DNA of 64,000 nucleotides from Candidatus Wallbacteria bacterium (GTDB lineage Bacteria > Muiribacteriota > JAQTZZ01): contig JAQTZZ010000002.1 in the NCBI GenBank assembly GCA_028687545.1, forward strand, positions 74,087 to 138,086, in the 5' to 3' direction. A model generated the notes under the pieces. That model saw only the letters and a program-made list of their open reading frames with translations. It made no database searches and was not told the DNA's origin. A program made the position numbers and the translations under genes. Positions within the stretch are counted from its first letter, which is position 1; every line of letters starts with the position of its first letter. Positions 21,701 to 47,185 of the stretch are shown here, piece by piece.

Positions 21701-21716
21701 TGTTACTGGAGGAAAT

Positions 21717-22661: not shown

Positions 22662-22672
22662 TAAATCTGGCT

Positions 22673-23605: not shown

Positions 23606-23707
23606 AATTACCCCTTGAAATCATTATCAGTATGACATTTTAGCCTCTGCCATATCAAGTAGTAATTTGGAGGTGTTTTCCTGTATAATTGATTTCACAA
23701 GGCCAAC

Positions 23708-24403: not shown

Positions 24404-24434
24404 AAAGGGCACGGTTTCCCGTGCCCTTTTGGTT
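24402..24434. terminator. Bidirectional rho-independent terminator between the small secreted protein gene (+) and giant gene B (-). It is the same sequence as 13181..13214.
   Basis: The sequence AAAAAGGGCACGG-TTTC-CCGTGCCCTTTT lies between two convergent stop codons. Confidence 0.8.
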
Positions 24435-30716: not shown

Positions 30717-31570
30717 CGTGATTCCTCCTGTTTGAACGTATTGATAAGAATTTCCTGCAATTCCGAGGAAACCTTGTATTTTTCAAAAAGTATCCTCACT
30801 GCTTCCCAGGTATAATCAGCCCCGCCGCACAGAATAAAATTTTCCCTGCCTGCTAAAAAATTCTGCCTGAAATAAAACCCGTATTTCATGAAATTGTTAA
30901 ATTTTCCCCGTTCCTGATCATTGAAATTATCCTTATCAGGATTGCAGAGCTCCAGGATGGGAAATTTATAGCAGTTTTCAGCTCTGGAGGGGGCTCCGGG
31001 ATAAAATATCAGTTTTTCCAGTTTACAGGATTTTTTTAACCGGGTAAGAGCAGCCAATACATCGTCCTTGATCTGTTTCCTCAATTTATCCTGCTCATCT
31101 TTGCCTGCCAGATAAAAGGAACCGAGTTTTACAGTCAAAGTATCGATTTTTCCGATGTTTTTACTGATTTGTTCTCGATTTTTCTCCCTTTCCAAAAGAT
31201 AACCTTTTTCTGTTTCAGTTGAGGCTTTTGAGCCGCTGGCAGCTTGATCACGCCGGTATCTTTCGAAAAGTTCGAGATTCTTGGATTCCAGCAGCTTGTT
31301 TTCTTTTTCCAGTCCTTTGATCTGCTGAAGTGCTTGTGCTCCCATCCTCTCTACGTCGGTAACCATATCCGAGTGAAGATAAACAAGATTCTGGATACTG
31401 AACTCGTTGTTTTTCAAGAATTTGGCTGTTATAAATCCATCGTTTTCAGGCAGATAGAAGAAAATGTTGTAAGGGTGAAACCTGAGCAGCAAAGCCAGAT
31501 CCACACTGCCGAAATCAGCGCAGGCTGGAAAGATGGCAGTTAAAACAGCGGCTAGAAAGAGCCTTTTCAT
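30713..31570 (-). CDS. Second Skp/OmpH-like paralog (285 aa) of operon B
   Basis: It is a paralog of 19363..20235 and carries the same DFGSVDLALLLRFHPY motif. It overlaps the downstream gene by 4 bp (ATGA). Confidence 0.4.
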   Translation of the reverse strand: MKRLFLAAVLTAIFPACADFGSVDLALLLRFHPYNIFFYLPENDGFITAKFLKNNEFSIQNLVYLHSDMVTDVERMGAQALQQIKGLEKENKLLESKNLELFERYRRDQAASGSKASTETEKGYLLEREKNREQISKNIGKIDTLTVKLGSFYLAGKDEQDKLRKQIKDDVLAALTRLKKSCKLEKLIFYPGAPSRAENCYKFPILELCNPDKDNFNDQERGKFNNFMKYGFYFRQNFLAGRENFILCGGADYTWEAVRILFEKYKVSSELQEILINTFKQEESR

Positions 31571-31671
31571 ATTTTTCCTTTCCGGAGGAGAAGTGATTTG
31601 TCCCCCTGATATGTAAATAAATCAAGGCCAAATAAAATCCCGGCATTTCCTGGATCTGGAAACTATCAGTA

Positions 31672-31700
31672 ATTTTATCCGCGATCCTGCTATCTGTCAA
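31672..31700 (-). promoter_or_regulatory. Sigma70-type promoter (TTGACA-N17-TAAAAT) for operon B
   Basis: On the minus strand, TTGACA (plus-strand 31695..31700) is followed by a 17-nt spacer GATAGCAGGATCGCGGA and then TAAAAT (plus-strand 31672..31677). The flanking sequence is conserved with copy A. Confidence 0.5.
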
Positions 31701-31771
31701 CTAAGCCCAAAGATAACTATTTACCAAATATTGTGGTCTCGGGTAAAAGATAATGTTAAACTTTAAACGGA

Positions 31772-32716
31772 ATGAGAAAATCAACCGGATTTTTTTACCT
31801 CTTGATTTTAGCCGGGACTCTGCTTTGCAAGGGCTGCGGGGACTCTCCCCAGGTGATTGTCTTTCATGCCGGCAGCCTTTCCAGGCTGATGTCTGATCTG
31901 AAAGCCGGATTCGAAGCCGCTAATCCCGGGGTGGAAGTCATCCTGGAGGCCTCAGGAAGCATCCCTGCCTGCCGTAAAACCTCTGAGCTGCATCGCCAGG
32001 CAGACATCATCGCAGTCTCGGATTCTCAGGTAATTGAAAGACTGCTTTATCCGAAGTTTTCTGACTGGTCCCTTGTTTTCGCAGGAAATAAAATGGGAAT
32101 AGCCTATGGGGAACATTCGAAATACGGCGAAGAAATTAATTCAGACAACTGGTTTGAAATCCTCTCCCGCAAGGACGTGAAACTTGGACGGGCCGATCCT
32201 GACCTTGATCCCTGCGGCTATCGCACGCTTTTCTGCTGGAAGCTATCAGACGTTTTCTATCAGGAAAAGCTTGCCGGGAAAAGCATCGCCGCCTCACTTG
32301 AAGCGAACTGCCCTCCGGCAAACATGCGGCCGTTCGAGCTGGAACTGGTGGCACTCCTGCAGAGCTATGCTTTGGATTACGTTTTCATCTATGAATCGAT
32401 CGCCAGGCAGTTCAATCTGAAGTTTGTGGACCTTCCGGATAAAATCAATCTGGGTACCACCACAGAAGCCGCTTTTTATTCCAGCGTGGATTTCCAAGTA
32501 AACGGAGGCGGGGAGAAGGAATTTACAGTCTCTGGGCAACAGATCTGTTATGCCTTCACGATCCCTGAAAGTGCTCCCCACCCGCAATTGGCCCTCAAAT
32601 TCGGTGAATTCATGCTGAAAAGCAGGGAAATCTCCGACAACTTCTATCAGACAGTGGAAGCAGCCTCGCTGCACCCCGAAAATCTTCCTCGTGAACTGAG
32701 GAAACTGCTGCCATGA
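31772..32716 (+). CDS. Molybdate/tungstate-type ABC substrate-binding protein (copy B)
   Basis: It has a signal peptide with a lipobox-like LCKGC. The segment VIVFHAGSLSRLMSDLKAGFEAANPGVEVILEASGS matches the type. It is a paralog of 22673..23605. Confidence 0.65.
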   Translation: MRKSTGFFYLLILAGTLLCKGCGDSPQVIVFHAGSLSRLMSDLKAGFEAANPGVEVILEASGSIPACRKTSELHRQADIIAVSDSQVIERLLYPKFSDWSLVFAGNKMGIAYGEHSKYGEEINSDNWFEILSRKDVKLGRADPDLDPCGYRTLFCWKLSDVFYQEKLAGKSIAASLEANCPPANMRPFELELVALLQSYALDYVFIYESIARQFNLKFVDLPDKINLGTTTEAAFYSSVDFQVNGGGEKEFTVSGQQICYAFTIPESAPHPQLALKFGEFMLKSREISDNFYQTVEAASLHPENLPRELRKLLP

Positions 32717-33375
32717 AAAGCCGGATTCTCATGCTGTGCGCCGTTTTTCTGCTGAGAATTGCTTCAGCCTGTCCGGCTTACACAGTGATGGATTCAACCA
32801 ACAATGACATGAAGGCGGCTTCAGCCAAACTATACTGGAGCGTGATCTTCTCGCTGAACAAATATGAGACCGGAACTTCGGAAGCGTCAGTTTTCAGAAC
32901 TAACTGGGATCAGCTTTCCTCTGTCTGGATGTTGTTTCAGACTAAGCTCGAAAACTGGCTGCGCCTGCTGCCTGAAGATCTGGGGCGGAAGGACTGGGAA
33001 AACGCCCTGAAGTCATTCTCTGATAACATCCAGACCATTAGAACCCAGATCGCGGCAGGCAGCCTGGAAATTTCGCTGGCAACAGCAGCCGAACTCAAAA
33101 CAGAACTCCTGCTTTTTTATCATTGCAATCCCCTGGACGGGGCAAAATATGCAGCTGAAACAGGCGATAAATTGCTGCTTGCAAAAGTGGCTGCGAATCT
33201 CTCCCTTCTCAAGGACCTCCCTGAACCATTGCTTGAATTCCGGAAACACCTGAATAGTCTTTATGAGAATTTCGACGATGCGCACTGCAGGGAATTTCTT
33301 GTCTGGAGGGAATCTCAAAGAATAAATCTGAAGAAGGAGTTGAGCGCTTACTTTGAAAAGCACAGCTGGTATTGA
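32713..33375 (+). CDS. Small secreted protein of unknown function (copy B)
   Basis: It has a signal peptide and the motif LFQTKLENWLRLLPED. It overlaps the upstream gene by 4 bp. Confidence 0.45.
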   Translation: MKSRILMLCAVFLLRIASACPAYTVMDSTNNDMKAASAKLYWSVIFSLNKYETGTSEASVFRTNWDQLSSVWMLFQTKLENWLRLLPEDLGRKDWENALKSFSDNIQTIRTQIAAGSLEISLATAAELKTELLLFYHCNPLDGAKYAAETGDKLLLAKVAANLSLLKDLPEPLLEFRKHLNSLYENFDDAHCREFLVWRESQRINLKKELSAYFEKHSWY

Positions 33376-34588
33376 CAGAATCGCAGCCGCTTTAGTCGTG
33401 CTGATACTGATCCACCTGCTTGTCTTTCCTCAGGTGATCGAAAAAATTCCCTTGCCAGGAGGAAAGACTGCCACAGACTGGCCGCTGGTGATGGTTGTAT
33501 TCTGCGCCAATCTCTTTTTTTTACTCTCCGGTTCCCTGCAGAGTGGAAGGCGCGGTTTCAGCTGGGAAATCTTTTTGTGCACTTATCTTCTACTGTTCGT
33601 GCTGATTTTCGTCCTGGCCGGGCGAGTGCTGTTCTTTGTGCTTTCGATATTTATGCTCTCAGGCTTGTATCATGACAAGCGCAAGCTGGGCTACCTTTTC
33701 CTGTTCCTGGCCTCGGTTCTGCTGGTATCAGCTTACTGGATCCCTGCTTTTATCTTATTTTCATTTCTTTACTACATTGTCCTGGAAACTGCCGGCAGAG
33801 TGGAAAATACCATGGAGAAGATATTCCTGGGCATCGGAATCTTACTTCTGCTCCTGCTGCTTTTCCCATTGATCAACCTGCTCTTTCAGTTCCAGGCGCA
33901 GACGCTTGTCGCATCCTTTTCTCCGGCACTGAAAGAGGCCCTGTTTACCAGTTGCCTGACCAGCGCGGTCTCCACGATCCTGATCCTTTTATTCGGTATA
34001 CCGCTCGCTTACATCATGGCCAGAAAGGAATTCGGCTGTAAACCTGTGATCGACGCGCTGATCGACCTGCCGATCATGGTTCCCCAGACTGCAGCGGGGA
34101 TAGCGATCCTGGTGCTGCTGGGGCCGAATACCCCGCTGGGAGAATTCTTTTCCGGATGTTTCGGTCTCTCTTTTGCCGGGAGCTATCTCGGGATCATCGC
34201 CTGCCAGATGTTCGTGAGCAGTCCTTTCCTGCTGCGTTCCGCGATCCATGCCTTCTCTGGAGTAGACCGCAGGCTGGAGAATGTCAGCCGTTCGCTCGGT
34301 GCGAAACCCCTGGCCACATTTCTCCGCGTCTCGCTGCCCCTGGCTTCTGCCGGTATCTTCAACGGCTGCATCCTCTGCTTTTCCAGAGCCATCTCCGAAG
34401 CCGGCAGCCTGATGATAGTCGCCTACAGGCCGGCCACAATCCCGATTCTGATCGACGACAACTTTTCCCGCTTCGGAGTGCGTGAAGCGGCTCCACTCTC
34501 AGTGCTGTTCATAATCATCTGCCTCTGGGGTTTCATAGTTTTGAAATGGCTTTATGAGACCAGGAAGAAGGCGGTGCTGCTGCCGTGA
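33353..34588 (+). CDS. ABC permease (ModB/WtpB-type) with an N-terminal membrane extension (copy B)
   Basis: It is a paralog of 20438..21700 and carries the EAA-loop region ENVSRSLGAKPLATFLRVSLPLASAGI. Confidence 0.7.
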   Translation: MKSTAGIDRIAAALVVLILIHLLVFPQVIEKIPLPGGKTATDWPLVMVVFCANLFFLLSGSLQSGRRGFSWEIFLCTYLLLFVLIFVLAGRVLFFVLSIFMLSGLYHDKRKLGYLFLFLASVLLVSAYWIPAFILFSFLYYIVLETAGRVENTMEKIFLGIGILLLLLLLFPLINLLFQFQAQTLVASFSPALKEALFTSCLTSAVSTILILLFGIPLAYIMARKEFGCKPVIDALIDLPIMVPQTAAGIAILVLLGPNTPLGEFFSGCFGLSFAGSYLGIIACQMFVSSPFLLRSAIHAFSGVDRRLENVSRSLGAKPLATFLRVSLPLASAGIFNGCILCFSRAISEAGSLMIVAYRPATIPILIDDNFSRFGVREAAPLSVLFIIICLWGFIVLKWLYETRKKAVLLP

Positions 34589-34604
34589 CGGAGAAAAATC
34601 CCAG

Positions 34605-35576
34605 ATGAACATCAGCTATCCGATCAAAAAACTCATGTCTGAACCGCTGCTTCCCATCAAAGGCAGCTGGATCGATGCCTTTCCTCTCTTACTGGTGTTC
34701 GGAATTTTACTTCTAGCTGCATTCCTCTTAGCCAGGAAAACCAGTTTCCACGAAATCCTGCGGAATCTCTGCCGGATCATGACTGCCTTCATTTTCGTAT
34801 TCTTTCTCTTCAAGTGCCTCTGCATCGTCAAGCTTGCAGCTTTCGGATTTTCCGAGATCGGCAAGGACGACCTGATCTCATTTTCCATGCTCTGGCTGAT
34901 CGCGGTCGTGGGCTCCGCGACTTTCCTGTTTGGCCGGATTTTCTGCGGTTTTCTCTGCCCGGTAGGGTTTCTGCAGGAAATATCCGGACGCTTTTCTCCG
35001 CTGAAACAAAGCTTCACGAAAAAAATCTATCTTTCCCTGCTTCTGATTCTGTCATCTCTGCTTCTCTATGAAGTCTGGCCTGCCAATGAGTTCGCCTTTG
35101 AATTCGTGATTGCCATCCTGAGCTTTATCATGGTGGGGATAGCGCTGCTGGTTCAATTCAGGCCTGATCTGGAACCTGCCCTGTTGAAAGCGAAGTATCC
35201 GATCCTGGCGGTCTACCTCTTCATCAGCGTGCTGGGAATCTATTTCAGTGAGGTCTGGTGCACCCTGTATGGAGCTGAAATCGACTATTCTTCGATCATT
35301 TCACTGCCCCTGGTGATTCTGGCCGCCCTGGCTGTCGGCATGCCATACTGCCGCTATGTCTGCCCGACCGGTTTTTTCCTGGCCCTCTGCAGTAAAACTT
35401 CTTTGTACTCCATCCACGGCAATTGCATTGACTGCGGCATGCCCTGCGGGAAAATATGTCCTTCAGGCGCTCTTTTCAAGGGAAAAATCGATCCCCTGCT
35501 CTGCATCTCATGCGGACGCTGCATAAAGAACTGCACTGCAGAATACAGAAGGCGAGACGGAAAACCGGATGTTTAA
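34605..35576 (+). CDS. NapH/MauN-family 4Fe-4S membrane protein (copy B)
   Basis: It carries FCGFLCPVGFLQE, YCRYVCPTGFF and a C-terminal ferredoxin-like cysteine cluster. I chose the start at 34605 (MNISYPIKK...) because it aligns with the copy-A N-terminus and sits 11 nt after a GGAG. The track ORF begins earlier, at 34554. Confidence 0.65.
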   Translation: MNISYPIKKLMSEPLLPIKGSWIDAFPLLLVFGILLLAAFLLARKTSFHEILRNLCRIMTAFIFVFFLFKCLCIVKLAAFGFSEIGKDDLISFSMLWLIAVVGSATFLFGRIFCGFLCPVGFLQEISGRFSPLKQSFTKKIYLSLLLILSSLLLYEVWPANEFAFEFVIAILSFIMVGIALLVQFRPDLEPALLKAKYPILAVYLFISVLGIYFSEVWCTLYGAEIDYSSIISLPLVILAALAVGMPYCRYVCPTGFFLALCSKTSLYSIHGNCIDCGMPCGKICPSGALFKGKIDPLLCISCGRCIKNCTAEYRRRDGKPDV

Positions 35577-36882
35577 ATGGCTCCTGATACCGCTTCTGCT
35601 CCTTTCCTGTACCGCTCAGGCAGCCGCAATTCCAGCTGACGATTCACCCTGGTACATGGCAGGAGGCGGCCCGGGCAAGGAAAACTGCACGAATCTGAAT
35701 TTTGATACACTCGAACTGCTCTGGACTTTTTCGCCAGGCCTGCATGTCTGGGAATACAGAAAAAGGATGAGCGTCTGGTCGGAATCAGTGGTTGCCGGAA
35801 CTGTCTCAGGCAGGCCCCTGCTTTTCTGCGGCAGCTATGATCACAATCTCTATTGCCTTGACGCCCGGACTGGCGCAAAGGTCTGGCGCTTCTCCACCGG
35901 CCTGCCGATCAACTCCTCCCCCTTGCTGATCGATTCCCAAAATGGGACCCGAGTATTCGTGGTTTCCACTGACAGGGTGGCCTACTGCCTGGATGCAGGT
36001 ACAGGCAGTAAAATCTGGTCCAGAGAGATCTATCCCTGGACTTTCACGGCTTTCGACGGCATCTTCCCTTCCCCGATCTCTGGTTCAGTGGGAAAGCGGG
36101 AACGCATTTTTCTCTCTGCCTGGTATGCGGACAACAAGCCGGTCAGGCCTGAACAGGCCGGCGTCGTTTTCTGCCTGGACCCTGAAACCGGGAGCACGGT
36201 CTGGATGAAGGCTGTCGGGAAAAGTCCCCTGTATTCGCCGGCCTTTATCAAGAAGGGTGACGGCGGCTGCCTGTACATCACTTCCGAAGACGGCAACATC
36301 TATTGTTTTGACGCAGAAAACGGCAGCCTGCTCTGGAAACACACCACTGCAGTCAATATGTCGTCTTCGCCAATGGTTGCAGCGACTCCGCAAAGGCGGC
36401 TTTACTCGGGAAACCTATTCGGGGTCTACTATGCACTTGACGCGGATTCCGGGGAGGAAATCTGGACATGCAAAATGGGAATGCAATGCATTTACCCGGG
36501 AGCATTGACCGGTTTGGGTGGAACTGTCCGCCTCTTTGTCGCGAATTTTGACCGCAATCTATATTGTCTCGACGCCAGGGAAGGCACAGTTTTATGGAAA
36601 TTCCAAACCGGAAAGTACAATGCAAGTTCACCGCTTTTGATCAATTTCAAGGGGGAGCAGGCTGTAGTTTTCCCATCACTGGATAACTCGCTTTATGTAG
36701 TACGGGCTTCAGACGGGAGCAGGATCTGGGAATACCGGATGGGAGAACGGCTCTGGGCTTATGATACAAGAGGGTGGACGCTCTGGCCGTCTCCGGTGGC
36801 TGTCAGGCTCGAAGGGAGAGCCCTTCTTCTGTTACCATGGTATGATGGGAAGATATATGCATTCAGTGCCGGTGCCGGCTGA
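35569..36882 (+). CDS. Secreted PQQ-like beta-propeller repeat protein (BamB-like fold)
   Basis: It has a signal peptide. Repeats such as LYCLDARTGAKVWRF, AYCLDAGTGSKIWSREI, IYCFDAENGSLLWKH and LYCLDAREGTVLWKF recur. It overlaps the upstream gene by 8 bp. Confidence 0.7.
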   Translation: MFKWLLIPLLLLSCTAQAAAIPADDSPWYMAGGGPGKENCTNLNFDTLELLWTFSPGLHVWEYRKRMSVWSESVVAGTVSGRPLLFCGSYDHNLYCLDARTGAKVWRFSTGLPINSSPLLIDSQNGTRVFVVSTDRVAYCLDAGTGSKIWSREIYPWTFTAFDGIFPSPISGSVGKRERIFLSAWYADNKPVRPEQAGVVFCLDPETGSTVWMKAVGKSPLYSPAFIKKGDGGCLYITSEDGNIYCFDAENGSLLWKHTTAVNMSSSPMVAATPQRRLYSGNLFGVYYALDADSGEEIWTCKMGMQCIYPGALTGLGGTVRLFVANFDRNLYCLDAREGTVLWKFQTGKYNASSPLLINFKGEQAVVFPSLDNSLYVVRASDGSRIWEYRMGERLWAYDTRGWTLWPSPVAVRLEGRALLLLPWYDGKIYAFSAGAG

Positions 36883-36979
36883 TTATTTCGCGCTGTACAG
36901 CTGGTGGAAACAAACGGGGGAAAATCCCTGATTGCTTTGATTTGACTGCATTTCAATAGTTTAGTATCATCAATCATGC

Positions 36980-39900
36980 GTGAAATTATGTTGGTTGTTC
37001 AACGGAGCCTCTCAGATGACTGAATTAGATAAAAATCCACATCATGCCGTCAATGAGCAGATACGTTTACTGCTGCAATCCGAAGATGAGACTGAACGCA
37101 AGCAGGCGATCATCCAGCTCGCCAAAAAACCGAGCCGCGAAAATTTCCTGACGCTGCAGAAAATAGCTGATTTCGATGAATCGGTCGAAGTGCGGTTTTA
37201 TGCCAAAAAAGCCTTGAATGTTCTGAAAAGCAGAATCACTCCCAAATTGTCCGAAAAGAAAACCGCCTATTTCAGTCCTGCTGAAATCGAGAATTTTTTT
37301 GAAGGAAAGACCGAAAGCAGCCAGGCGGTACCGATCATTCAACACCTGGTCAATACTGGTTTGAAAGAAAAGCTCCCGGAGTTGATCACTGTATTGAACC
37401 GGGAAAAAGATTCCAACATCCTGGCTGCCCTGCTGATTGCAATCGGCAAATTCGGATCAGAGAGCGAAATTAAAACTATCGCCCCGTTTCTCTCCCACGA
37501 AATTCCCAGAGTCAGGGCCAACGCAATCGACGCGCTGGAAATGATCGGCAGCGAGCGGGCCTATCCTTTTGTGATCTCGAAACTGGAGGATGCCGACAAC
37601 CGAGTCCGAGCCAACGCGGTACGGTTCGTAAGGGAACTCGGCGGAGTGAACACTCTGAAAATACTGCGCACCATGGCCGGTTCTCCCGGTGTCGCGATGC
37701 GCGCCTCGGCAGCCTATGTGCTGCAGTATTTCCCCACTCAGGAAAACATGGAAACTGTATTGACATTATTCAATGACCGCGATCTGACTGTCAGGAACAA
37801 TGCGCTTAAAACCCTGCTGATCTTTAAAAAGAAAGGAGTGGGGAAAGCGGAAGAGATCTTGAAAAAGCTGGGCAAAGAGGCAGAAATAAAAGCGGAAAGC
37901 CTGGAAGAGATCGAACATGAAACGCAGGACACTGCCGAGACAAGGGACAGGCTGAAGACCGTATTGAACAGTTCAGACCCGGGGATGCGGCTGAAAGCGA
38001 TAGTGGATACAGTGGAAAAAGGCTCAGGCGGAGCAATACTGCTGGAGCATCTTTCAAAAGAAAATGATCACAAGGCAATCGCCACTATCATTATCGGTCT
38101 GGGAAAACTCCAGTATCGGAAGGCACTTCCGGTGCTGGTAAAATATCTTAAATCAAAAGATGCACGCTGCCGGGCAAATGCTGTTGAGGCAATCAGGTTA
38201 ATCAATGATAAAGACAAATTAAAGGAAATAATCCCGCTTTTGAAGGATGAGAACAACCGGACCCGGGCGAACTCGATCCTGGCTTTGAAAGATGAGAAAA
38301 ACGCCGGAATCTATGCCTCGCTGCTTGAGATGGTCAAATCTGAAACGAAAGAGATGCAGCTGTCCGTGATCTACGTCATCATGGAGCTTGAAGATCTGGA
38401 TTACTATGAATTTCTGCTCGAACTTGAAAGGTCAGGGCATCCGGAAGTCTCGAAAAAAGCACGCGACAGCATTAAAACACTGGAAAGTCAGGGCATAAAA
38501 GTTCTGATAAAAACGGAAACCGAACGCTCGAGCCGGGTGTTCCGGATCTATGTCAGTTCGACCTTCAGCGACCTCAGGGAAGAGAGGGAAGCGCTCCAGG
38601 CGAAAGTTTTCCCGAAGTTGAGTAAGCTCTGCCGGCAGCATGGCTATCGTTTTCAGGCTGTCGACCTGCGCTTTTTGATTACGGAAGAAGATGCAATAGA
38701 CCAGCAGACGATGAAGATCTGTTTATCCGAAATCAAACGCTGCCAGGCAGTCTCCCCCAGGCCTAATTTCATGATTCTTCTCGGTGACCGCTATGGCTGG
38801 CGGCCGCTTCCTGCCGAGATACCGGAAAGTGAATATTATAAAATTTCGGAAAAGCTCCGCGTGAAAATAAAAATGGGTAAATTCACGGCCGAAGACCTGA
38901 AACTGCTTGATTCATGGTATAAACGCGACCTGAACGCTTTATCCAAAAAAAAGGATTCTGAAACCTTATGGGTATTGCAGCAGCGGACAGGCGAATATGC
39001 AGAATTGAAATGCTGGGAGAAAGTTGAACAGAGGCTTTCTCATATCTTGAGACAGGCGACAGGAGATTTCCAGGGGGATCGACGCCTGTTTTATAATGTC
39101 TCAGCCGTTGCGCAGGAAATTGTCAAGGGTGCCCTGGAACACAGCAAAAACGCCAAAAAGCATGTATTCTGCTTTTTCAGGAAAATATCCAATCTGGATG
39201 ATCTGAAAATAGACTTGCGCTCAAAGAAATCACAAGTTAAAGATTTTGTTGATACTGATGCGGGAGGTGCCTTTGATCAGGAATCCCATGGCCTGTCGGA
39301 TTCACTCAAGAACATGTTGTACAAGACCCTGCCTCAAAACATCTTTGAATACGATGCCAGATGGGAAAAAGGCAAGCTGACGACCGGCCATATCGATAAA
39401 ATGTGCCGGGATGTTTATCAGGCGCTGTCCTGCGTCATCCTGGATAAAATAGCGCATGACGTCAAACTTACCCCGCTCGCCAAAGAAATCATTAACCATG
39501 AAAATTTCCGCTTGAAAATAGCAAAAAACTTTACCGGGCGGGGGGAATACCGGAAGTTCATCGCGGATTATCTGAAACCTGATGTAGAGCCAAAGGCACC
39601 CCTGGCGATTTACGGGCAAGCAGGCAGCGGAAAATCCGCTTTACTGGCTCAGTCGATCTCCGATGCGATTGAAAAATATGGTAGAAATACGGAGCAGAGC
39701 ACGTTTGTTGTAATCCATAGGTTTTTAGGGAACACGCCCGATTCATCGACTCTTCACTCATTACTGGAAAGCCTCTGCCGCCAGATAGCCCATCATTATG
39801 GCATTGATGAAAAATCGATCCCTTGTGATGATGACGGCCTGGAAATGAAATTCCTGGAATTACTGAGATCAGCTACTGCCAGAAAACCGCTGCTCCTGTT

Positions 39901-41767
39901 TCTGGACGCTCTGGATCAACTGCCGAATGATAACCATGCCCATGAATTGAGATGGTTGCCTCCCGAAATTCCGGAAAACGTCAGGTTGGTGGTCTCGACA
40001 TCTGCCGGCGCGATCACGGCAAACGACAAGTCCAGGGATGATTCAGAAAGTTGCCTGGAGCATCTGAAGAAAAAGATCCCTCAGGAAAACATCAAAGAAC
40101 TGCAAAATATGCCAGCCAGTGAAGGCTCGCTTCTGCTGGATTGCTGGTTAAAAAAAGCCGGCCGCCAATTGACGGGAGAACAGCGCTCCCTGATTCTGGA
40201 TAATTTCAAAAGGAACGGCAATCCCCTTTATTTGAAAATTGCCTTTGGGGAAGCCAGACGCTGGAAATCATTTACAAAGCCTGAAGAAATAAAGTTGAGC
40301 GCTGACCTGGCCGGCATCATCAAAGACCTGTTTAAGCGCCTGTCTCTGCCCCAGAACTGCGGAGAAATGATTGTCTCCCGCATACTTGGTTATCTTGCCG
40401 CAGGCCGCAATGGATTATCCGAAGAAGAGCTTTTGGAGATTCTGGCTGCTGATCCTGATTTTTATGGTTATCTTGACAGCCAGCTGCATTTAAGACTGCA
40501 AAAGTCCATAGAGAAAAAACAGATCCCGTTCGTGGTCTGGGCACGGCTTCATTTTGAACTCGCTCCCTATCTTTTAGAAAGCATGATCGGTGGATCATAC
40601 CTGCTGACTTTCCTGCACAGGCAGTTCAGCATGGCCGCAAAAGAAATGTATCTTTCGGGTCAGGATAGAAAGAAGCTGCATCAGGTTCTGGCCGGATATT
40701 TCGAGAATAATCCGGGAATGGATGACAGGAAATTTGACGAACTGCCCTGGCAGCTGTGCCGGGCTGAGAACTGGTCAGGCCTGAAAGATTGTATTACAGA
40801 TCTCTCTATGTTTAAAAAATTCCTGCTGGAGGGAAGAAGATCCGAATTGACAGGTTACTGGGCTTCTCTTGCCGGCAGATTCGATATGGTCCAGTCATAC
40901 AATCTGATGATCGAAAATCATGAAAACACTTCTCCTGCAGCCGCCGACTTCGCACTTTTAATAAATCAGACTGCCTCTTTCCTGCAAGATAATGCAAGAT
41001 ATGAAGGAGCTGAATCACTTTTCCGCAAAGCTCTGTCAATACAGGAAAAGGAAGTGGGGTCAGAACACCCTGACACAGCCCTCAGCCTGAACAATCTTGC
41101 CACTCTGCTTAAAAATAAAGGTGACTATGGTGGAGCGGAACTGCTTTACTATAGGGCTCTGGCGATCTGGGAAAAGGCCTTGGGCCCGGATCACCCGAAC
41201 ACGGCCCTCAGCCTGAACGATCTTGCAATGCTGCTTTACAATAAAGGGGACTATGAAGGTGCTGAGCCCCTTTTACGCAAGGCTCTGGCAATCAGGGAAA
41301 AGTCATTGGGTCCCGAGCACCCGGATACTGCCCTGAGTCTGAACAATTTTGCCATGCTGCTTTACAATAAAGAGGACTATCAGGAAGCTGAACCCCTTTT
41401 GCGCAAGGCCTTGGCGATCTGGGAAAAAGTTCTGGGACCGGAGCACCCAGATACCGCTCGAAGCCTGGACAATCTGGCAGGGCTTTTGAAAAATAAGGGA
41501 AGCTATTGCGAAGCTGAGCCGCTTTACCGCAGGGCTCTGGCAATCAGGGAGAAGGTATTGGATCCCGAACACCCTGATACCGCTCTCTCCCTCCACAATC
41601 TTGCGACTCTGCTTGTGACAATGGGAGACAATCTGGGAGCGGAACCCCTTTATCGCAGAGCTCTGATAATCTGGGAAAAGGTGCTGACCCCTGACCATCC
41701 ATGGACACGAGCTGCCAGAAACAATCTGGATTCTCTGTTACAGCGAAAGCAAAAAGGCACTGTTTGA
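36980..41767 (+). CDS. STAND-class NTPase: N-terminal PBS-lyase-type HEAT repeats, a DUF4062-like domain, a NACHT/NB-ARC-like P-loop NTPase, and C-terminal kinesin-light-chain-type TPR repeats
   Basis: HEAT units with VRxxAxxAL cover about aa 20-500. The segment SRVFRIYVSSTFSDLREEREAL...MILLGDRYGWRP lies around nt 38531..38820. Walker A GQAGSGKS is at 39614..39637. Walker B LLLFLDALDQL is near 39890. Six or more units of the form LGPEHPDTALSLNNLA..LL.NKGDY..AEPLYRRALAI.EK run to the C-terminus. Confidence 0.8.
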   Translation: MKLCWLFNGASQMTELDKNPHHAVNEQIRLLLQSEDETERKQAIIQLAKKPSRENFLTLQKIADFDESVEVRFYAKKALNVLKSRITPKLSEKKTAYFSPAEIENFFEGKTESSQAVPIIQHLVNTGLKEKLPELITVLNREKDSNILAALLIAIGKFGSESEIKTIAPFLSHEIPRVRANAIDALEMIGSERAYPFVISKLEDADNRVRANAVRFVRELGGVNTLKILRTMAGSPGVAMRASAAYVLQYFPTQENMETVLTLFNDRDLTVRNNALKTLLIFKKKGVGKAEEILKKLGKEAEIKAESLEEIEHETQDTAETRDRLKTVLNSSDPGMRLKAIVDTVEKGSGGAILLEHLSKENDHKAIATIIIGLGKLQYRKALPVLVKYLKSKDARCRANAVEAIRLINDKDKLKEIIPLLKDENNRTRANSILALKDEKNAGIYASLLEMVKSETKEMQLSVIYVIMELEDLDYYEFLLELERSGHPEVSKKARDSIKTLESQGIKVLIKTETERSSRVFRIYVSSTFSDLREEREALQAKVFPKLSKLCRQHGYRFQAVDLRFLITEEDAIDQQTMKICLSEIKRCQAVSPRPNFMILLGDRYGWRPLPAEIPESEYYKISEKLRVKIKMGKFTAEDLKLLDSWYKRDLNALSKKKDSETLWVLQQRTGEYAELKCWEKVEQRLSHILRQATGDFQGDRRLFYNVSAVAQEIVKGALEHSKNAKKHVFCFFRKISNLDDLKIDLRSKKSQVKDFVDTDAGGAFDQESHGLSDSLKNMLYKTLPQNIFEYDARWEKGKLTTGHIDKMCRDVYQALSCVILDKIAHDVKLTPLAKEIINHENFRLKIAKNFTGRGEYRKFIADYLKPDVEPKAPLAIYGQAGSGKSALLAQSISDAIEKYGRNTEQSTFVVIHRFLGNTPDSSTLHSLLESLCRQIAHHYGIDEKSIPCDDDGLEMKFLELLRSATARKPLLLFLDALDQLPNDNHAHELRWLPPEIPENVRLVVSTSAGAITANDKSRDDSESCLEHLKKKIPQENIKELQNMPASEGSLLLDCWLKKAGRQLTGEQRSLILDNFKRNGNPLYLKIAFGEARRWKSFTKPEEIKLSADLAGIIKDLFKRLSLPQNCGEMIVSRILGYLAAGRNGLSEEELLEILAADPDFYGYLDSQLHLRLQKSIEKKQIPFVVWARLHFELAPYLLESMIGGSYLLTFLHRQFSMAAKEMYLSGQDRKKLHQVLAGYFENNPGMDDRKFDELPWQLCRAENWSGLKDCITDLSMFKKFLLEGRRSELTGYWASLAGRFDMVQSYNLMIENHENTSPAAADFALLINQTASFLQDNARYEGAESLFRKALSIQEKEVGSEHPDTALSLNNLATLLKNKGDYGGAELLYYRALAIWEKALGPDHPNTALSLNDLAMLLYNKGDYEGAEPLLRKALAIREKSLGPEHPDTALSLNNFAMLLYNKEDYQEAEPLLRKALAIWEKVLGPEHPDTARSLDNLAGLLKNKGSYCEAEPLYRRALAIREKVLDPEHPDTALSLHNLATLLVTMGDNLGAEPLYRRALIIWEKVLTPDHPWTRAARNNLDSLLQRKQKGTV

Positions 41768-41845
41768 GTCAGCACCGCTTTCAGACAACTTTATTAGTTT
41801 TCTAAACTCTGATAAAATGTCATAAAAAATTAATCCGGAAAAAAT

Positions 41846-44800
41846 ATGCCTTCTAAAATTGTCTCTCAGAATCTCTCGATCATGATCACCGACATCCAGG
41901 GATTTTCTAATACTACAACCTCCAGTTCCCGTTCGGAGATTGTGGATCTGATCCGCAGGCACAAACAGCTGATGGTGCCGGTAATTGAATTTTACAAGGG
42001 CCGGATCTACAAGACCATGGGTGATGCTTTTCTGTGCGGCTTCAACAGTGCAACAGATGCAGTGGTCTGTGCCCTGATCGTCCAGCTGGTGCTCAAAGAA
42101 TTCAATGACCGGCTGCATGACGAGAGCAAGCAGATGCTGATCAGGGTTGTAATCAACTCCGGAGACGTGACCATCGAGGAAAACGATGTTTTCGGCGATG
42201 CGGTTAATATAGCGGCCAGGATGGAAGCCCTGCCCTGCTTTCCTGGCGGTTCGATCGGCATCAGTGAATCCACATATCTTCTAATGAATCGCAGTGAAAT
42301 AGTGTCTGAAAAGATCGGGCCGATGGAGCTTAAAGGCATTACCGAACCTGTGACCGTCTACCAGGTACCTGTGGCGAAACAGAAACTTACTTCAATTCCC
42401 AGGCATCTGCTGGAACTGATAGAATCAGTGTTCGATTCCAAGGATGCGAATCCTGAGACAGTCAAGCAGTGGAATGAGTCGATCCGCAATTTTCTGGGTG
42501 CCAAGCCTGAATCCGTATCCGGCCCGTCGAAAATTCAGGAAACACCCGACAAACTCAAGCTGAAAGCCGTCAAATCAGGGACAACCCATGTTGAAAAAAC
42601 AACCCATCCTCCGGAGGTACAGAAGGCGGTTCCGGAAGCTAAGGGCGGCAAAAAGAGTTTCAGAGACCTGAAAAATGAAGCTGATCCGCTCCAGGGGTTG
42701 ATCTCAGACCCATTCAGCGGAAAAAAAGGCAAAGAAGGAATTGCGGTGAAACGGGTGGGGAATGCGGAAATTTCTCAGCCTCATGTTGCTGTTAAGCCTC
42801 CCCGTACTCCAAATATTACCAGAGACCAGAAACCAGCTCAACCAAAACCCGCCGAAGCTGAACCCTTCGGAATGCAGAAGCTGCTGTTTCTGCTGGGTCT
42901 GCTTTCCCTGAGCCTCTGCCTGATTTTTTTCATGGTCCAGTACAGAAATGATCCCCGCCTCAACCTTCGTTTATATTCTTTCGGCCTGATCAGCAAGAAT
43001 TACGCAACTTCCCGAATTTCAGCGGAATTCCCTTTCCAGAATCCCGACATGCGCATTTTCATCATCAAATCCCTGATCGAAATAAAAGCTGACCCCAAAG
43101 AAGTGCTGCTGCTGATTTTTTCATCCCTGAAAGATCAGGCTGCCCAGGTTGCGGATTTCGCTGCCAAAAAATTGGATGATTATCTGAGAAACGACCCTGC
43201 TGCTTTTTCCGCACTGCTTCTTCTGCAGAAACACCGCAACCCGGATCTGGCTTCACAGGCTGCTCAAAAAATCAGATCAATCGGAGCCGATGATTTAGGG
43301 AAAATTCTCTCAAATTCGCTGAACAGCCAGGATCCTCTGGTCAGGGCAATGGCTTTGAAAGCTTATGCCGGCAGATCCGATGCACAGCAGGTGAGCCGGA
43401 AATTCCTGAGCGATGCCGATCCCCAGGTCAGGCTAGCTGCGCTCGACACCTGTTCAGGTTCGGACAGCAGTGAAACCACTGCCTCGGCACTGGCCGAATG
43501 CCTGGCCGACCCTGACACTGAAGTCCGAAAAGCAGCTGTGACTGCGCTGAAGCATTTCATCAGTTTTCCGTCATCTCTGGCCGCAACTCTGATCAAGGCC
43601 GTCAAAAGCGATGATCCGCAGGTGCGCCTGCTGGCGGTTTCCGCGCTGGGAACCGCCGGCTGCAACAGCAGCGAAGTTATTGCATCTCTAAAGGAAGCCA
43701 TGTCCGATCCAAATAAGCAGATCAATCTCCAGGCAATCCGTTCACTCCAGATGCTGGGAAATGCCCAGACCTCCCTGCCTGAAATGATCAAGGCTCTTTC
43801 GGACAAGAATCAAAAAATCAGCGGTTCCGCTTCAGAAACTCTTGCCAGCCTTCTTGCCAGCGAGGCGGCAATTCCATCGCTTGCGAACTGTATTTCAGAT
43901 CCCGATCACAGCGTCAGACTGTATGCGGCGAATGCCCTGGGAAATTTCGGCAAATCCGCATTGTCTGCTTATCCGATGCTCCTGGATGGTCTGAAAAACT
44001 GCGAATCATCAGATCTGAAATGCTTCACAGATGCGCTCAGCAAAATAGGCAGTGATGAGCCGGGCACAATTCCATATCTTACAAAAGCCCTTTCAGAAAA
44101 TTCCCAGCGCTTGCGTTTATTCGTGATCGACACACTTGGGCATTACGGTAAAGCTGCCAGCGATACGGCAGTTCAGCTGACACCACTTTATGCTGACGGC
44201 AGCAGGGAACTGCGTGGCCAGATTCTTAATACCCTTGGGGAAATCGAACCTGATTTCAAGATCTCCTTTTCCCTCATTTCCAAAGCTCTCACGGACAAGG
44301 ACGATTCCTTGCGCACTCAAGCGGAAGAAGTCCTGAAAAAACTGGCCGTCTCCACTGATGCGCTTCCATTGCTGCTGGAATCGCTCTCTCATAAAGACCA
44401 GACGATCCGTGCCACTGCTGCTTCAACGATCGGATTCTCGAACCAGGACCTGAAACCCGCCATACCTTTGTTGACAAACTGCCTAGCAGACCCGATAAAA
44501 ACCGTGAAAGACAATGCCGCAGCCTCGCTTATCAGAATTGGCGGACCCGCGGTTTCTTACCTTGGTGCAAAATTGCAGAGTTCGGACAACGCTGAAATCA
44601 AATTAGTGCTGGAGGTTCTGGACCGCTTTGGAGACCAGGCAGGAAGCGCAGTCCAGGCGATAGTTCCGAAGCTTAACGACCCTGATCTCGAAATCCGCCG
44701 GCTCTGCCTCAAAATCCTGGGAAACGTCCAGTCAGGACCTGAGTGCATTCCCGCTGTAATACAATTGTTAAAGGATAATGACCCTGAGGTCTGCCGGCTG

Positions 44801-45229
44801 GCAATCAAAGCTCTGGAAAAAAACGGAAGCACTTCTGCTGCGGCTATCCCGGAACTCACAGCCTCGCTTTCAAGTTCAGATCCTTATTTACGCCGTCTGG
44901 CCATTAAAGCCCTGGATTCCATTGACATTGACAAGAAAATAACAGGCACAACCCTGATCAGGGCACTCAACGGCAGCGACTCGTATTTGAGGGAATATGC
45001 GGATGAAGCTCTGACCCGCATGGATAAAAATCCTCAACTGGCGGTTGCCGCTTATGGAATAGCGCTGCATGACAGCGATCCATTTGTCAGAACCTATGCC
45101 GCCAAAGCCCTGAGCAGGTTCGGATCTGGATCCAGGGAATTTATTCCCGTTCTTCAGGAGATGGCTAAGAGCGACGAGAGTTTCACTGTCCGCAGCGCAG
45201 CCCAGGAAGCACTGAAAACGATCAAATAA
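41846..45229 (+). CDS. Class III adenylate/guanylate cyclase catalytic domain fused to a TM helix and a long array of PBS-lyase HEAT repeats
   Basis: The N-terminal 175 aa carry IMITDIQGFSNTT...YKTMGDAFLCGF...GDAVNIAARMEAL, the class III cyclase signature. A hydrophobic helix LLFLLGLLSLSLCLIFFMV lies near nt 42880..42945. At least 15 DPxxxVRxxAxxALG HEAT units follow. Confidence 0.75.
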   Translation: MPSKIVSQNLSIMITDIQGFSNTTTSSSRSEIVDLIRRHKQLMVPVIEFYKGRIYKTMGDAFLCGFNSATDAVVCALIVQLVLKEFNDRLHDESKQMLIRVVINSGDVTIEENDVFGDAVNIAARMEALPCFPGGSIGISESTYLLMNRSEIVSEKIGPMELKGITEPVTVYQVPVAKQKLTSIPRHLLELIESVFDSKDANPETVKQWNESIRNFLGAKPESVSGPSKIQETPDKLKLKAVKSGTTHVEKTTHPPEVQKAVPEAKGGKKSFRDLKNEADPLQGLISDPFSGKKGKEGIAVKRVGNAEISQPHVAVKPPRTPNITRDQKPAQPKPAEAEPFGMQKLLFLLGLLSLSLCLIFFMVQYRNDPRLNLRLYSFGLISKNYATSRISAEFPFQNPDMRIFIIKSLIEIKADPKEVLLLIFSSLKDQAAQVADFAAKKLDDYLRNDPAAFSALLLLQKHRNPDLASQAAQKIRSIGADDLGKILSNSLNSQDPLVRAMALKAYAGRSDAQQVSRKFLSDADPQVRLAALDTCSGSDSSETTASALAECLADPDTEVRKAAVTALKHFISFPSSLAATLIKAVKSDDPQVRLLAVSALGTAGCNSSEVIASLKEAMSDPNKQINLQAIRSLQMLGNAQTSLPEMIKALSDKNQKISGSASETLASLLASEAAIPSLANCISDPDHSVRLYAANALGNFGKSALSAYPMLLDGLKNCESSDLKCFTDALSKIGSDEPGTIPYLTKALSENSQRLRLFVIDTLGHYGKAASDTAVQLTPLYADGSRELRGQILNTLGEIEPDFKISFSLISKALTDKDDSLRTQAEEVLKKLAVSTDALPLLLESLSHKDQTIRATAASTIGFSNQDLKPAIPLLTNCLADPIKTVKDNAAASLIRIGGPAVSYLGAKLQSSDNAEIKLVLEVLDRFGDQAGSAVQAIVPKLNDPDLEIRRLCLKILGNVQSGPECIPAVIQLLKDNDPEVCRLAIKALEKNGSTSAAAIPELTASLSSSDPYLRRLAIKALDSIDIDKKITGTTLIRALNGSDSYLREYADEALTRMDKNPQLAVAAYGIALHDSDPFVRTYAAKALSRFGSGSREFIPVLQEMAKSDESFTVRSAAQEALKTIK

Positions 45230-45761
45230 AGCGCTTTCTTCCGAGGAAAATCACTGCCAATAACAGCAGTATCGCCAGGAATGCGTTGTATTCCTTATTC
45301 CGCACCGCAAGTTTCAGAGAAAATTTCGACTTGGCATAGGAATGAATCTTAGGAAAAAAAAGGGGAACTTGATTACTGTAATTCTCGAAATCGCTCCCGA
45401 AAAAACGTCGCAGATCGCTCTCTTCCTGCCGCATTTTTGGCAGATAGGCACAGCTAAAAGCTATGCAAAAACCAAGGATCAGAGAAACCGGAAGCAGCAG
45501 GACTGAAAATCCGAACCCCATCATGAAACTGCCGAAGTAAAGAGGATTTCTGGTCAGGGAGTAAGGCCCGCTCCTGGCGAGCTCTCGATTCTTGGAAATG
45601 GTCCCTGCCGCCCAGAAGCGTGTCAGTAATCCGGATAAAATCAGTAAAATTGCGGGTTTTCTAAGTTTCTCTTTCCGATAGCAAAATAAAATCAAGACAA
45701 ACAGGGCACCCAGGAACTTCCTGAAAAAATTTAATTGCCTGTAGGTCGGTTTTTTCATCAC
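45222..45761 (-). CDS. Isoprenylcysteine carboxyl methyltransferase (ICMT/PEMT)-family membrane methyltransferase
   Basis: The motif SGPYSLTRNPLYFG is present, together with a multi-TM profile. Confidence 0.6.
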   Translation of the reverse strand: MMKKPTYRQLNFFRKFLGALFVLILFCYRKEKLRKPAILLILSGLLTRFWAAGTISKNRELARSGPYSLTRNPLYFGSFMMGFGFSVLLLPVSLILGFCIAFSCAYLPKMRQEESDLRRFFGSDFENYSNQVPLFFPKIHSYAKSKFSLKLAVRNKEYNAFLAILLLLAVIFLGRKRFI

Positions 45762-45776
45762 AATCCAGTCCTCTGT

Positions 45777-46451
45777 TTACATTCTGCCGTCTGTTTCTCC
45801 ATGCGCCAGCATCAGGCCTCTGATGTCCCAGCCCGGAAAGCTTTCACAGGCTGCACGCAGCGTGCCACCTGTGGTGATAACATCATCAATTATAATGATC
45901 CTGCGTTTTTCCGGCAAACTTTCTGCCGGATTCAACCTGAAAGCCCCTGCGGGATTAGTAAGCCTTTGTGATCTGCCCAGCCTGACCTGCCGTTCTGTCC
46001 TGCGGGTTTTTAAAAGCAGGGGCCTGACCTGATATCCTGATGCGGCCAGCAGGGCAAGGATCGGGGAAAGATGATCCTGCTCAGGGTTTCCTGCACCACA
46101 GAAAGGTGGAATCCCGGCCAGCAGGGTCTCCTTTTCTTCTTCACCCAGCATCCGCTTGAAGATCCCGGCCATTAATGGCGCAAGCTTGAATTTTCCCCTG
46201 AATTTATAAGAAATTATCATCTTCCTGACTGTGCCGTCATAGGGATAGGCATAACTGGCTTCGTGCCCGTCAACCTGGATTCTACCCGGATTGAATTCCC
46301 GTTCGAGTGCTGTGAGACATTCCATACAGACAATCCTGTCCGGCGGGAGACGGACATCGCAACCAGGGCATTTCAAGGGGAAAAGAAAATTCAGAAACGA
46401 GTGGCAGGCTGAGCACAGTTCCTGCATCACCTGATGATGCCGCGACTGCAA
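45777..46451 (-). CDS. comF: ComF-family phosphoribosyltransferase-domain protein
   Basis: An N-terminal Cys4 zinc ribbon (CSACHS...CPGCD) is followed by the PRTase motif RRIIIIDDVITTGGTL. Confidence 0.7.
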   Translation of the reverse strand: MQSRHHQVMQELCSACHSFLNFLFPLKCPGCDVRLPPDRIVCMECLTALEREFNPGRIQVDGHEASYAYPYDGTVRKMIISYKFRGKFKLAPLMAGIFKRMLGEEEKETLLAGIPPFCGAGNPEQDHLSPILALLAASGYQVRPLLLKTRRTERQVRLGRSQRLTNPAGAFRLNPAESLPEKRRIIIIDDVITTGGTLRAACESFPGWDIRGLMLAHGETDGRM

Positions 46452-47185
46452 TTTTTGATGAAATCGATCAGATAACAGACCAGCTCTTCGTGCCCCAGCT
46501 CTTTTTCCAGGATTTTAAGCGCCTGAGTATTGTTGAGGCCTGAGCGGAACAAATATCTGTAAGCTTTTTTCAAGGTTGAAAGATCCCGTGGCGACAATCC
46601 GGCTCTTTTCAGACCGATCGTATTCAGTCCGCAGATCTCGGCAGGATTGCCGTCGCAGGTGACAAAAGGGACCACATCCTGCACCACTTTGCAGAGTCCT
46701 CCGATAATCGCAAGTTTGCCTACCCGGCAGAACTGATGAATCGCCGCCAGTCCCCCGATCACCACATTGTCCTCAATGGTGACATGGCCTCCCATGGTTC
46801 CGGAATTGGCTATGATCACATTGTTTCCAACCTTGCAGTGATGGGCGATATGGGAATAAGCCATGATCAGATTGTCGTTACCGATTTCAGTGGGTGTGCC
46901 GTCAGCAGGAGACGCATTGATAGTCACATATTCCCTGATGCTGTTGTTGTCCCCGATCTGGACAAAACTCTCTTCTCCTTTATAAGCCAGAGCCTGAGTG
47001 ATGTTGCCGATCACGGCGCCGGGATGAATCTTGTTGTTTCTGCCGATCCTGGTATGTCCTATGATCACCGCGTGATATCCGATTTCGCTGTGATCCCCTA
47101 TTTCGACGGAATCCCCGATCACTGCACCATAGCCGATCTTCACCCCTCGACCTATCTGGGCTTTTTTCGAGATATCAGCTTTCAT
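46427..47185 (-). CDS. lpxA: Acyl-ACP--UDP-N-acetylglucosamine O-acyltransferase
   Basis: Hexapeptide repeats run throughout: IGRGVKIGYGAVIGDSVEIGDHSEIGYHAVI. The protein is about 250 aa. The gene sits in a conserved lpxD-fabZ-lpxA context. Confidence 0.85.
   Translation of the reverse strand: MKADISKKAQIGRGVKIGYGAVIGDSVEIGDHSEIGYHAVIIGHTRIGRNNKIHPGAVIGNITQALAYKGEESFVQIGDNNSIREYVTINASPADGTPTEIGNDNLIMAYSHIAHHCKVGNNVIIANSGTMGGHVTIEDNVVIGGLAAIHQFCRVGKLAIIGGLCKVVQDVVPFVTCDGNPAEICGLNTIGLKRAGLSPRDLSTLKKAYRYLFRSGLNNTQALKILEKELGHEELVCYLIDFIKNCSRGIIR

Follow-up and report, generated by a model that had tools for sequence, protein, structure and literature searches.

The gene at positions 41846..45229 of a 64-kb window from Candidatus Wallbacteria bacterium (contig JAQTZZ010000002.1; the window is the whole stretch of DNA analysed, 64,000 nucleotides) probably encodes an independent, active, membrane-tethered adenylate cyclase, in which an N-terminal class III catalytic domain is followed by a single transmembrane (TM) helix and a very long array of HEAT repeats. 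It is best read as an enzyme of receptor type and belongs to a large uncharacterised group in which the cyclase comes first, a membrane anchor follows and the outer module varies. Directly upstream lies a gene for a STAND (signal transduction ATPase with numerous domains) protein, and a preliminary description of the window had suggested that the two genes could form a signalling or defence module dependent on cyclic nucleotide monophosphates (cNMP), with a regulatory cyclase as the fallback. The evidence assembled here points to a lineage-specific signalling enzyme and not to a new two-gene defence system, consistent with the fallback. The adjacency is best read as that of two independent genes, which may share a transcript. 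Each component (class III cyclase, HEAT repeats, NIR-NACHT protein) is of a known kind; what is new is the joining of a cyclase, a TM helix and HEAT repeats, in this order, within one protein. The cyclase gene and its parts are as follows.

41846..45229, + strand: whole cyclase gene, an intact open reading frame (ORF) of 1127 amino acids (aa), predicted to encode a membrane-tethered class III adenylate cyclase with a C-terminal HEAT-repeat region
41867..42364, + strand: class III cyclase catalytic domain, aa 8-173 (Pfam PF00211, PDB alignments, subfamily alignment, AlphaFold2 (AF2), Foldseek)
42365..42499, + strand: conserved post-catalytic segment, aa ~174-218, with two predicted helices and the subfamily motif PLDKQKLxxIPxRLLxLVE, here VAKQKLTSIPRHLLELIE
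42500..42871, + strand: K/P/E-rich linker, aa ~219-342, predicted to be disordered from its composition and its AF2 predicted local distance difference test (pLDDT) values
42881..42943, + strand: single TM helix, aa 346-366, LLFLLGLLSLSLCLIFFMVQY (Kyte-Doolittle 19-residue mean 2.83; AF2 helix 343-365)
42944..45226, + strand: aa 367-1127, predicted to be all-alpha and extracytoplasmic; at least 17 HEAT units are recognisable within aa 488-1124

The start codon is correct, since the N-terminus MPSKIVSQNLSIMITD lines up with the N-termini of close homologues. An identical database twin of the cyclase (P0001) is labelled 'HEAT repeat domain-containing protein [Candidatus Wallbacteria bacterium]' and forms a singleton cluster on a 222-kb contig of a metagenome-assembled genome.

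Catalytic domain and membrane architecture of the cyclase

The stretch aa 8-173 matches Guanylate_cyc (PF00211; E 5e-19) and scores 69 bits where the cutoff is 21.9; the closest solved structures were 3mr7 (E 4e-21) and Ma1120 of Mycobacterium avium (E 1e-10). All six canonical catalytic residues are present, namely the metal-binding D16 (in TDIQG) and D60 (in GDAF), the adenine-specifying K56 and D114, and the transition-state residues N121 and R125, the last two sitting within GDAVNIAARME. Successive members of this set are 40, 4, 54, 7 and 4 residues apart, which agrees with the canonical spacing of Rv1625c (D256, K296, D300, D365, N372 and R376), except for a shorter arm region in the window cyclase. 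D16 and D60 align to Asp residues of both 3mr7 and Ma1120, and K56, D114, N121 and R125 align to Ma1120 K101, D157, A164 and R168. In Ma1120 the Lys and Asp specify ATP, and Asn-Arg is the usual class III transition-state pair (PMC4215837); thus the window cyclase has the same K/D adenine pair and the same Arg as Ma1120, together with the canonical Asn that Ma1120 lacks.

Furthermore, D16, K56, D60, R100, D114, N121 and R125 are invariant in an alignment (A2) of 14 close subfamily sequences of 47-65% identity, and the invariance of the canonical catalytic residues across the subfamily argues for a selected enzymatic function. An AF2 model of aa 1-220 reached a mean pLDDT of 87.5, and its top 50 Foldseek matches in the PDB were all class III cyclases, including Ma1120 (4wp8) with a template-modelling score of 0.92 and a root-mean-square deviation of 1.5-1.8 A. 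The cyclase domain is apparently catalytically competent and of the adenylate-cyclase type, and the residues predict cAMP, made from ATP, as its product. Missing catalytic residues, and with them a pseudo-cyclase, were the outcome that the preliminary description had named as fatal to its claim; the canonical set is complete here.

The same fold and core occur in compact class III adenylate cyclases such as Ma1120 (4wp8/4wp9) and Silicibacter pomeroyi 3mr7 (Foldseek template-modelling scores 0.85-0.92). Proteins of that type are soluble catalytic domains or carry other partner domains, whereas in the window cyclase the catalytic domain is extended by a conserved helix, a long and disordered tether, a TM helix and a HEAT-repeat array of ~730 aa. 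Within the post-catalytic segment, the subfamily alignment shows no variation at Q179 and P185 and at least 90% conservation of L188, the AF2 model places helices at 186-198 and 203-218, and the phmmer matches of close relatives reach aa 200-243 of the cyclase protein. This helix, with its PLDKQKLxxIPxRLLxLVE motif, lies beyond the Pfam cyclase model and is a marker of the close subfamily (P0197-P0214); it could act as a dimerisation or regulatory element. The linker that follows varies among relatives and is not conserved. Its surroundings are rich in charged residues and proline (21 K, 18 P and 14 E among the 162 residues of aa 181-342, a stretch that includes the conserved helices), and in the full-length AF2 model aa 218-343 have a pLDDT of ~30 and no secondary structure.

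Kyte-Doolittle hydropathy gave no second membrane span in the cyclase protein; two marginal 19-residue windows (peak 1.77) fall inside the folded cyclase domain. Beyond the TM helix, the HEAT_2 model (PF13646) matched 10 stretches of the protein (E 8.5e-76), and a hidden Markov model (HMM) self-trained on the protein's own units recognised 17 HEAT units between aa 488 and 1124. The full-length AF2 model is all helical from ~aa 400 to 1126, with 42 helices. The tandem helix-turn-helix units of ~30-40 aa that match HEAT models (PF13646 / PF02985) and define a HEAT repeat protein are therefore present, and the resulting solenoid makes up two thirds of the cyclase protein.

The catalytic domain needs ATP and should therefore be cytoplasmic. 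With a single span, the cyclase domain and the HEAT array would lie on opposite sides of the membrane. The organism is taken to be diderm since lpxA, an lpxC-fabZ fusion, lpxD, skp, bamA and tamB are present in the window, and the HEAT array is thus predicted, from hydropathy and single-span logic, to be periplasmic. The preliminary description was accurate on the ORF, on its class III cyclase identity, and on the presence of an upstream STAND gene and a convergent next gene. Its order of an N-terminal, cytoplasmic cyclase domain, one TM helix and a long HEAT array agrees with Pfam, hydropathy and AF2 (the cytoplasmic location being deduced), and its estimate of 15 or more HEAT repeats is borne out by the units and helices counted above.

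Relatives of the cyclase and their outer modules

Relatives were sought by a word-indexed search of a 5.8-billion-cluster database, with the full protein and the HEAT region alone as queries, and by an exhaustive HMMER search of aa 1-480 against 1.84 billion representatives, from which the best 150 of 36,298 hits were taken. Among the matches returned by the word-indexed search, the full protein retrieved itself and cyclase-domain matches only, at 26-43% identity. This search missed the close subfamily, which the exhaustive HMMER search recovered as about twenty representatives (P0197-P0216) with 47-65% identity over aa 4-243, the post-catalytic helix included. In these proteins the cyclase lies at the extreme N-terminus and is followed by a variable linker and then by membrane modules. 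Many of them carry RDD domains (Pfam-confirmed on L082 and L085), others have a single TM helix and a short EF-hand-like tail, and one has a Zn-ribbon and a multi-TM region.

The same order of catalytic domain, linker, TM segment and variable module extends beyond the close subfamily. An N-terminal cyclase was found in 146 of the best 149 representatives, and 131 of these 146 have a hydrophobic segment after it. Farther matches carry TPR or TolB-like regions beyond the TM helix, e.g. P0004 and P0007 ('class 3 adenylate cyclase/TolB-like protein') and P0008, this set being labelled 'class 3 adenylate cyclase/TolB-like protein/TPR', while the closest members (P0197-P0214, with RDD or EF-hand-like tails) have the PLDKQKL...LLxLVE helix in common with the window cyclase at 47-65% catalytic-domain identity. 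In contrast to the window cyclase, no HEAT units occur in the best 149 representatives of the 36,298 HMMER hits, and within this set a HEAT solenoid as the outer module of the group is so far found only here.

Among the word-index matches, cyclase and HEAT regions were joined in other orders only, with the HEAT region N-terminal and the cyclase C-terminal in P0002 and P0005, and a kinase-cyclase-HEAT order in P0058 and P0062. P0002 (Ozemobacteraceae), the best non-self word-index match, was considered as a counterpart and set aside: its order is the reverse, HEAT before cyclase, and it has no STAND neighbour on its 10-kb contig. The cyclase-TM-HEAT combination was found in no other protein among the word-index matches returned or the best 150 of the 36,298 HMMER hits, and a literature search for cyclase and HEAT architectures found none.

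The HEAT region alone retrieved, in the word-indexed search, only generic HEAT relatives of 23-34% identity and no informative orthologue. Several of these matches are Peptidase_M56 (BlaR1-type) membrane proteins with C-terminal HEAT repeats. BlaR1 has an external sensor domain, and the Peptidase_M56-HEAT proteins suggest, by analogy, a precedent for HEAT arrays beyond a membrane anchor.

The gene neighbourhoods of the close cyclase subfamily differ from one another (LuxE/LuxC/radical SAM, peptidase U32/AcrB, and Zn-ribbon genes), and none of these neighbours is common to the window. A Zn_ribbon_8 gene directly adjoins the cyclase in the contigs of both P0197 (L080, 2233-2619, - strand) and P0002 (L001, 5011-5412, - strand). 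These two contigs are unrelated, the window has no such gene, and the adjacency may be coincidence. In addition, a metagenome contig (L113, 2-2490) carries cyclase-matching ORFs of this family in tandem on one strand. The first, of 580 aa, has its cyclase domain at the C-terminus; after it comes a subfamily cyclase that is divided between two overlapping frames.

The upstream STAND gene and the genomic setting

The features that adjoin the cyclase gene in the window are as follows.

36980..41767, + strand: gene for an NLR-like STAND protein of 1595 aa, judged to lie outside the cyclase system (Pfam HEAT_2, DUF4062, NACHT and TPR_NPHP3)
41768..41845, + strand: AT-rich intergenic gap of 78 nt between the STAND and cyclase genes, read directly from the sequence; no Rfam match
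45222-45761, - strand: LmtA/ICMT-like methyltransferase gene, convergent on the cyclase gene and overlapping its stop by 8 bp

The STAND protein consists, in order, of a HEAT_2 region (aa ~25-470), DUF4062 (aa 522-610; 46.7 bits against a cutoff of 24.7), a NACHT/AAA_16 domain (aa 851-1056; 37.4 bits against 26.7 for NACHT) with the Walker A motif GQAGSGKS, an NWD1-like winged helix, and TPRs of the NPHP3/kinesin-light-chain type. Its core has more than 700 homologues of 38-48% identity, patchily distributed across bacteria and archaea, with C-termini made of WD40 repeats, TPRs or no repeats. DUF4062 is NIR, a TIR-like NADase effector that occurs in Avs and other NLR-like proteins, in Swarozyc, Vulcan, Vesta and Evangelion, and in human TEP1 (bioRxiv 10.64898/2026.05.01.722283, 10.64898/2026.09.04.749371, 10.64898/2026.06.25.731849), and the human NIR-NACHT proteins NWD1, NWD2 and NPHP3 showed no activity in vitro (bioRxiv 10.64898/2026.05.01.722283). 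In the window protein, it is the N-terminal half of the NIR region that aligns to 11gz_A, a crystal structure of the TIR-like part of TEP1 (E 1.6e-11 by sequence and 7.9e-19 by family profile). The Glu of its SAxxQE motif, a candidate for the catalytic Glu of an NADase, is at least 90% conserved in 21 STAND homologues; the 11gz_A alignments end before the catalytic Glu of TEP1, E1008.

Like the NIR-bearing NLR-like and Avs-type proteins and the eukaryotic NWD1, NPHP3 and TEP1, the window STAND protein runs from DUF4062 through a NACHT-type NTPase to C-terminal TPRs, and the patchy distribution of its homologues resembles that of NIR proteins (bioRxiv 10.64898/2026.09.04.749371). It differs from them in an extra HEAT region of ~500 aa ahead of the NIR domain and in an insertion of ~85 aa within the NIR domain, before the SAxxQE motif; its NADase activity and any defence role are putative. 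As judged from its domains, the protein has a self-contained, single-protein NLR-like architecture with an effector-type NIR domain in the usual position, and may be an NADase. The preliminary description had seen no effector gene; an effector-type, TIR-like domain lies within the STAND protein itself. As a further observation, the STAND protein, unlike the cyclase, was not returned as a self match from its own core query; the source record may lack a gene call for it.

The gap between the two genes, given as 79 bp in the preliminary description, measures 78 nt by direct reading. A promoter and terminator scan placed neither a + strand terminator-like site nor a promoter-like site in these 78 nt, and an Rfam scan of 36000-46500 gave no match and no riboswitch. 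Across the region, the scan gave about as many promoter-like and terminator-like sites as it did for shuffled sequence.

Conservation of the pairing was examined from both sides. On the STAND side, a profile of the NIR-NACHT core led to 78 loci in genomes, 1.32 Mb in all with at most 10 kb of flanking sequence per side, which were searched with a cyclase HMM. A cyclase was adjacent to the STAND homologue in 0 of the 78 loci, and a class III cyclase lay within 10 kb in only three, none of them with a TM-HEAT architecture. These three cyclases were found 8.6 kb away, 3.7 kb upstream with a gene between, and, as a truncated and non-N-terminal copy, 1.2 kb downstream. This rate of about two cyclases per Mb agrees with the background to be expected in cyclase-rich phyla. 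On the cyclase side, 80 metagenome loci of cyclase relatives (672 kb), seven of them from the close subfamily, contained the STAND core in 0 of 80. As proposed, the two-gene module would have failed if its genes were never neighbours in related genomes, and this is essentially what was observed.

The closest STAND relatives, where inspected one by one, have other neighbours than a cyclase, and these are defence-like. P0195 (DUF4062-NACHT-HEAT) adjoins a TIR_2/ThsB-like gene (L162, 5069-6109, - strand), and after P0077 (DUF4062-NACHT-WD40) come genes for a C11 peptidase and two dynamin-like GTPases (L163, 13791-19867, + strand).

The claim that the two proteins of the window have the same repeat type holds at the family level, both regions being PF13646, and goes no further, as BLASTP between the HEAT regions of the cyclase and the STAND protein gave a single high-scoring segment pair (37% over 73 aa, E 3.6e-5). 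What the two regions have in common is just the generic, widespread bacterial HEAT_2 type. Furthermore, the STAND protein has no hydrophobic segment (Kyte-Doolittle maximum 1.21) and should therefore be cytoplasmic, which would leave the two HEAT arrays on opposite sides of the membrane and disfavours the HEAT-HEAT pairing that had been proposed. The STAND and cyclase genes are the only HEAT, STAND or cyclase genes in the window. No cNMP-binding or CRP-like gene was found in the 64 kb, which does not support the cNMP-dependent module of the preliminary description. A horizontally acquired island was considered and rejected, there being no compositional signal: codon usage and G+C content at third codon positions (GC3) of both genes are typical of the window.

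On the other side of the cyclase gene, the convergent methyltransferase gene resembles Leptospira LmtA (lipid A 1-phosphate O-methyltransferase) and ICMT-type methyltransferases, its score of 62.7 bits falling well short of the cutoff of 325. It is the first gene of an envelope cluster comprising a comF-like gene, lpxA, the lpxC-fabZ fusion, lpxD, skp, bamA, tamB and mlaD. Elsewhere in the window, two giant paralogues (13215-18299 and 24434-29638, both on the - strand) encode proteins of 1694 and 1734 aa with 79% identity over ~1720 aa, neither of which matches Pfam or NCBIfam. Behind each come two ORFs of 285-322 aa, likewise unmatched (the flanking genes lie at 18404-24403 and 29748-36882), and next to each are genes for an ABC permease, a membrane iron-sulfur protein (Fer4_5) and a binding protein (SBP_bac_11). 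The two regions look like a duplicated module of ~11 kb.

Proposed mechanism and alternative explanations

The cyclase is proposed to act as a stand-alone receptor-type adenylate cyclase with reversed receptor topology. Class III cyclases must dimerise to form their active sites, and the cytoplasmic N-terminal catalytic domains would homodimerise and convert ATP to cAMP. A disordered tether of ~125 residues would lead from these domains to the one membrane-spanning helix, beyond which a solenoid of ~730 residues, roughly 20 HEAT repeats, would extend in the periplasm and most likely serve as a binding sensor or scaffold for a protein or envelope ligand. A tether of this length and disorder would hardly pass on a rigid conformational change, and the catalytic domains would more probably be regulated via their dimerisation, clustering or localisation. 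Of this specific regulatory mode we are much less sure than of the enzyme itself.

Several points weigh against this interpretation. The STAND and cyclase genes share a strand, only 78 nt separate them and this gap holds no terminator-like site; co-transcription, hence some functional coupling, may occur. Substrate and product are predicted from residue identity, and topology from hydropathy and the single span; the charges flanking the TM helix are ambiguous (4 K/R on the N-terminal side versus 3 on the C-terminal side). In addition, no orthologue of the cyclase-TM-HEAT protein was found, so the exact gene pair is not traceable, and conservation of the pair could be tested only via more distant relatives of each gene.

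The spacing of the two genes is also the starting point for regarding them as a co-transcribed signalling or defence module in which a STAND trigger switches on cNMP synthesis, possibly via HEAT-HEAT contact, or in which the signal runs in reverse. PF13646 repeats in both proteins, and their standing as the sole HEAT, STAND or cyclase genes in the window, would fit such a module, and fusions of cyclases with STAND NTPases exist, e.g. Rv0386 of M. tuberculosis. In the window, the cyclase and the NTPase are in separate ORFs with a stop codon and the 78-nt gap between them, so that a fusion of the Rv0386 type is not present. The module was judged very unlikely, given that neither set of homologous loci contained the pair, that the HEAT regions should face opposite sides of the membrane and resemble each other only generically, that no cNMP-binding effector gene was found in the window, and that the STAND protein already has an effector-type domain of its own in NIR (bioRxiv 10.64898/2026.09.04.749371). 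Very unlikely, too, is joint action, in some other manner, of the NIR-NACHT protein and the membrane cyclase from a shared transcript. Envelope damage or phage attachment might, for instance, be sensed by the periplasmic HEAT array, with the resulting cAMP priming or gating the NADase-bearing STAND protein; alternatively, a STAND oligomer could recruit the disordered cytoplasmic tether of the cyclase. If true, such action would constitute an undescribed, lineage-specific link of cAMP signalling to NLR-type immunity. Overall, any real functional coupling of the two proteins is improbable, the adjacency looks accidental, and the cyclase would function independently of the STAND protein.

Two further explanations concern the cyclase by itself. 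A Pycsar-like antiviral cyclase would produce a cyclic pyrimidine or cAMP upon infection and thereby engage a cNMP-dependent effector. Like Pycsar, the window cyclase has a cyclase fold of the class III type; PADLOC matched it weakly to PycC models (E 1.6e-9 at 35 bits, and E 3e-5), and it adjoins an NLR-like, defence-type gene. However, these matches are partial and no stronger than a class III cyclase of any sort would be expected to give, K56/D114 is the adenine-specifying pair (PMC4215837), and the TM and HEAT architecture departs from Pycsar. There is no adjacent cNMP-binding effector gene, the neighbours being the STAND gene and the convergent LmtA/ICMT-like methyltransferase gene, and the close cyclase relatives occur in unrelated housekeeping contexts, all of which makes this explanation extremely improbable. 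Less remote, though still very unlikely, is a protein whose HEAT array is the functional part, e.g. as an envelope scaffold, with a regulatory or inactive cyclase domain. The solenoid does account for most of the protein, and the gene abuts the LmtA-like, comF-like, lpxA, lpxC-fabZ, lpxD, skp, bamA, tamB and mlaD cluster. Against a pseudo-enzyme of this kind, the catalytic residues are canonical and invariant across the subfamily, the envelope cluster is convergent on the opposite strand, and the relatives of the cyclase lie away from envelope genes.

The interpretation as an independent, membrane-tethered adenylate cyclase has consequences for both proteins. What appears to be a pair of a STAND sensor and a cyclic-nucleotide generator consists of two separate known kinds of protein, and it should not be counted as a new cNMP-dependent defence system. 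With its HEAT-NIR-NACHT-TPR order, the STAND neighbour is a further architecture within the NIR (DUF4062) NADase family, which was described only recently. A periplasmic HEAT-type sensor on a cyclase has not been studied so far, and the window protein shows that the N-terminal-cyclase membrane group can bear a very large HEAT solenoid, predicted to lie outside the cytoplasm.

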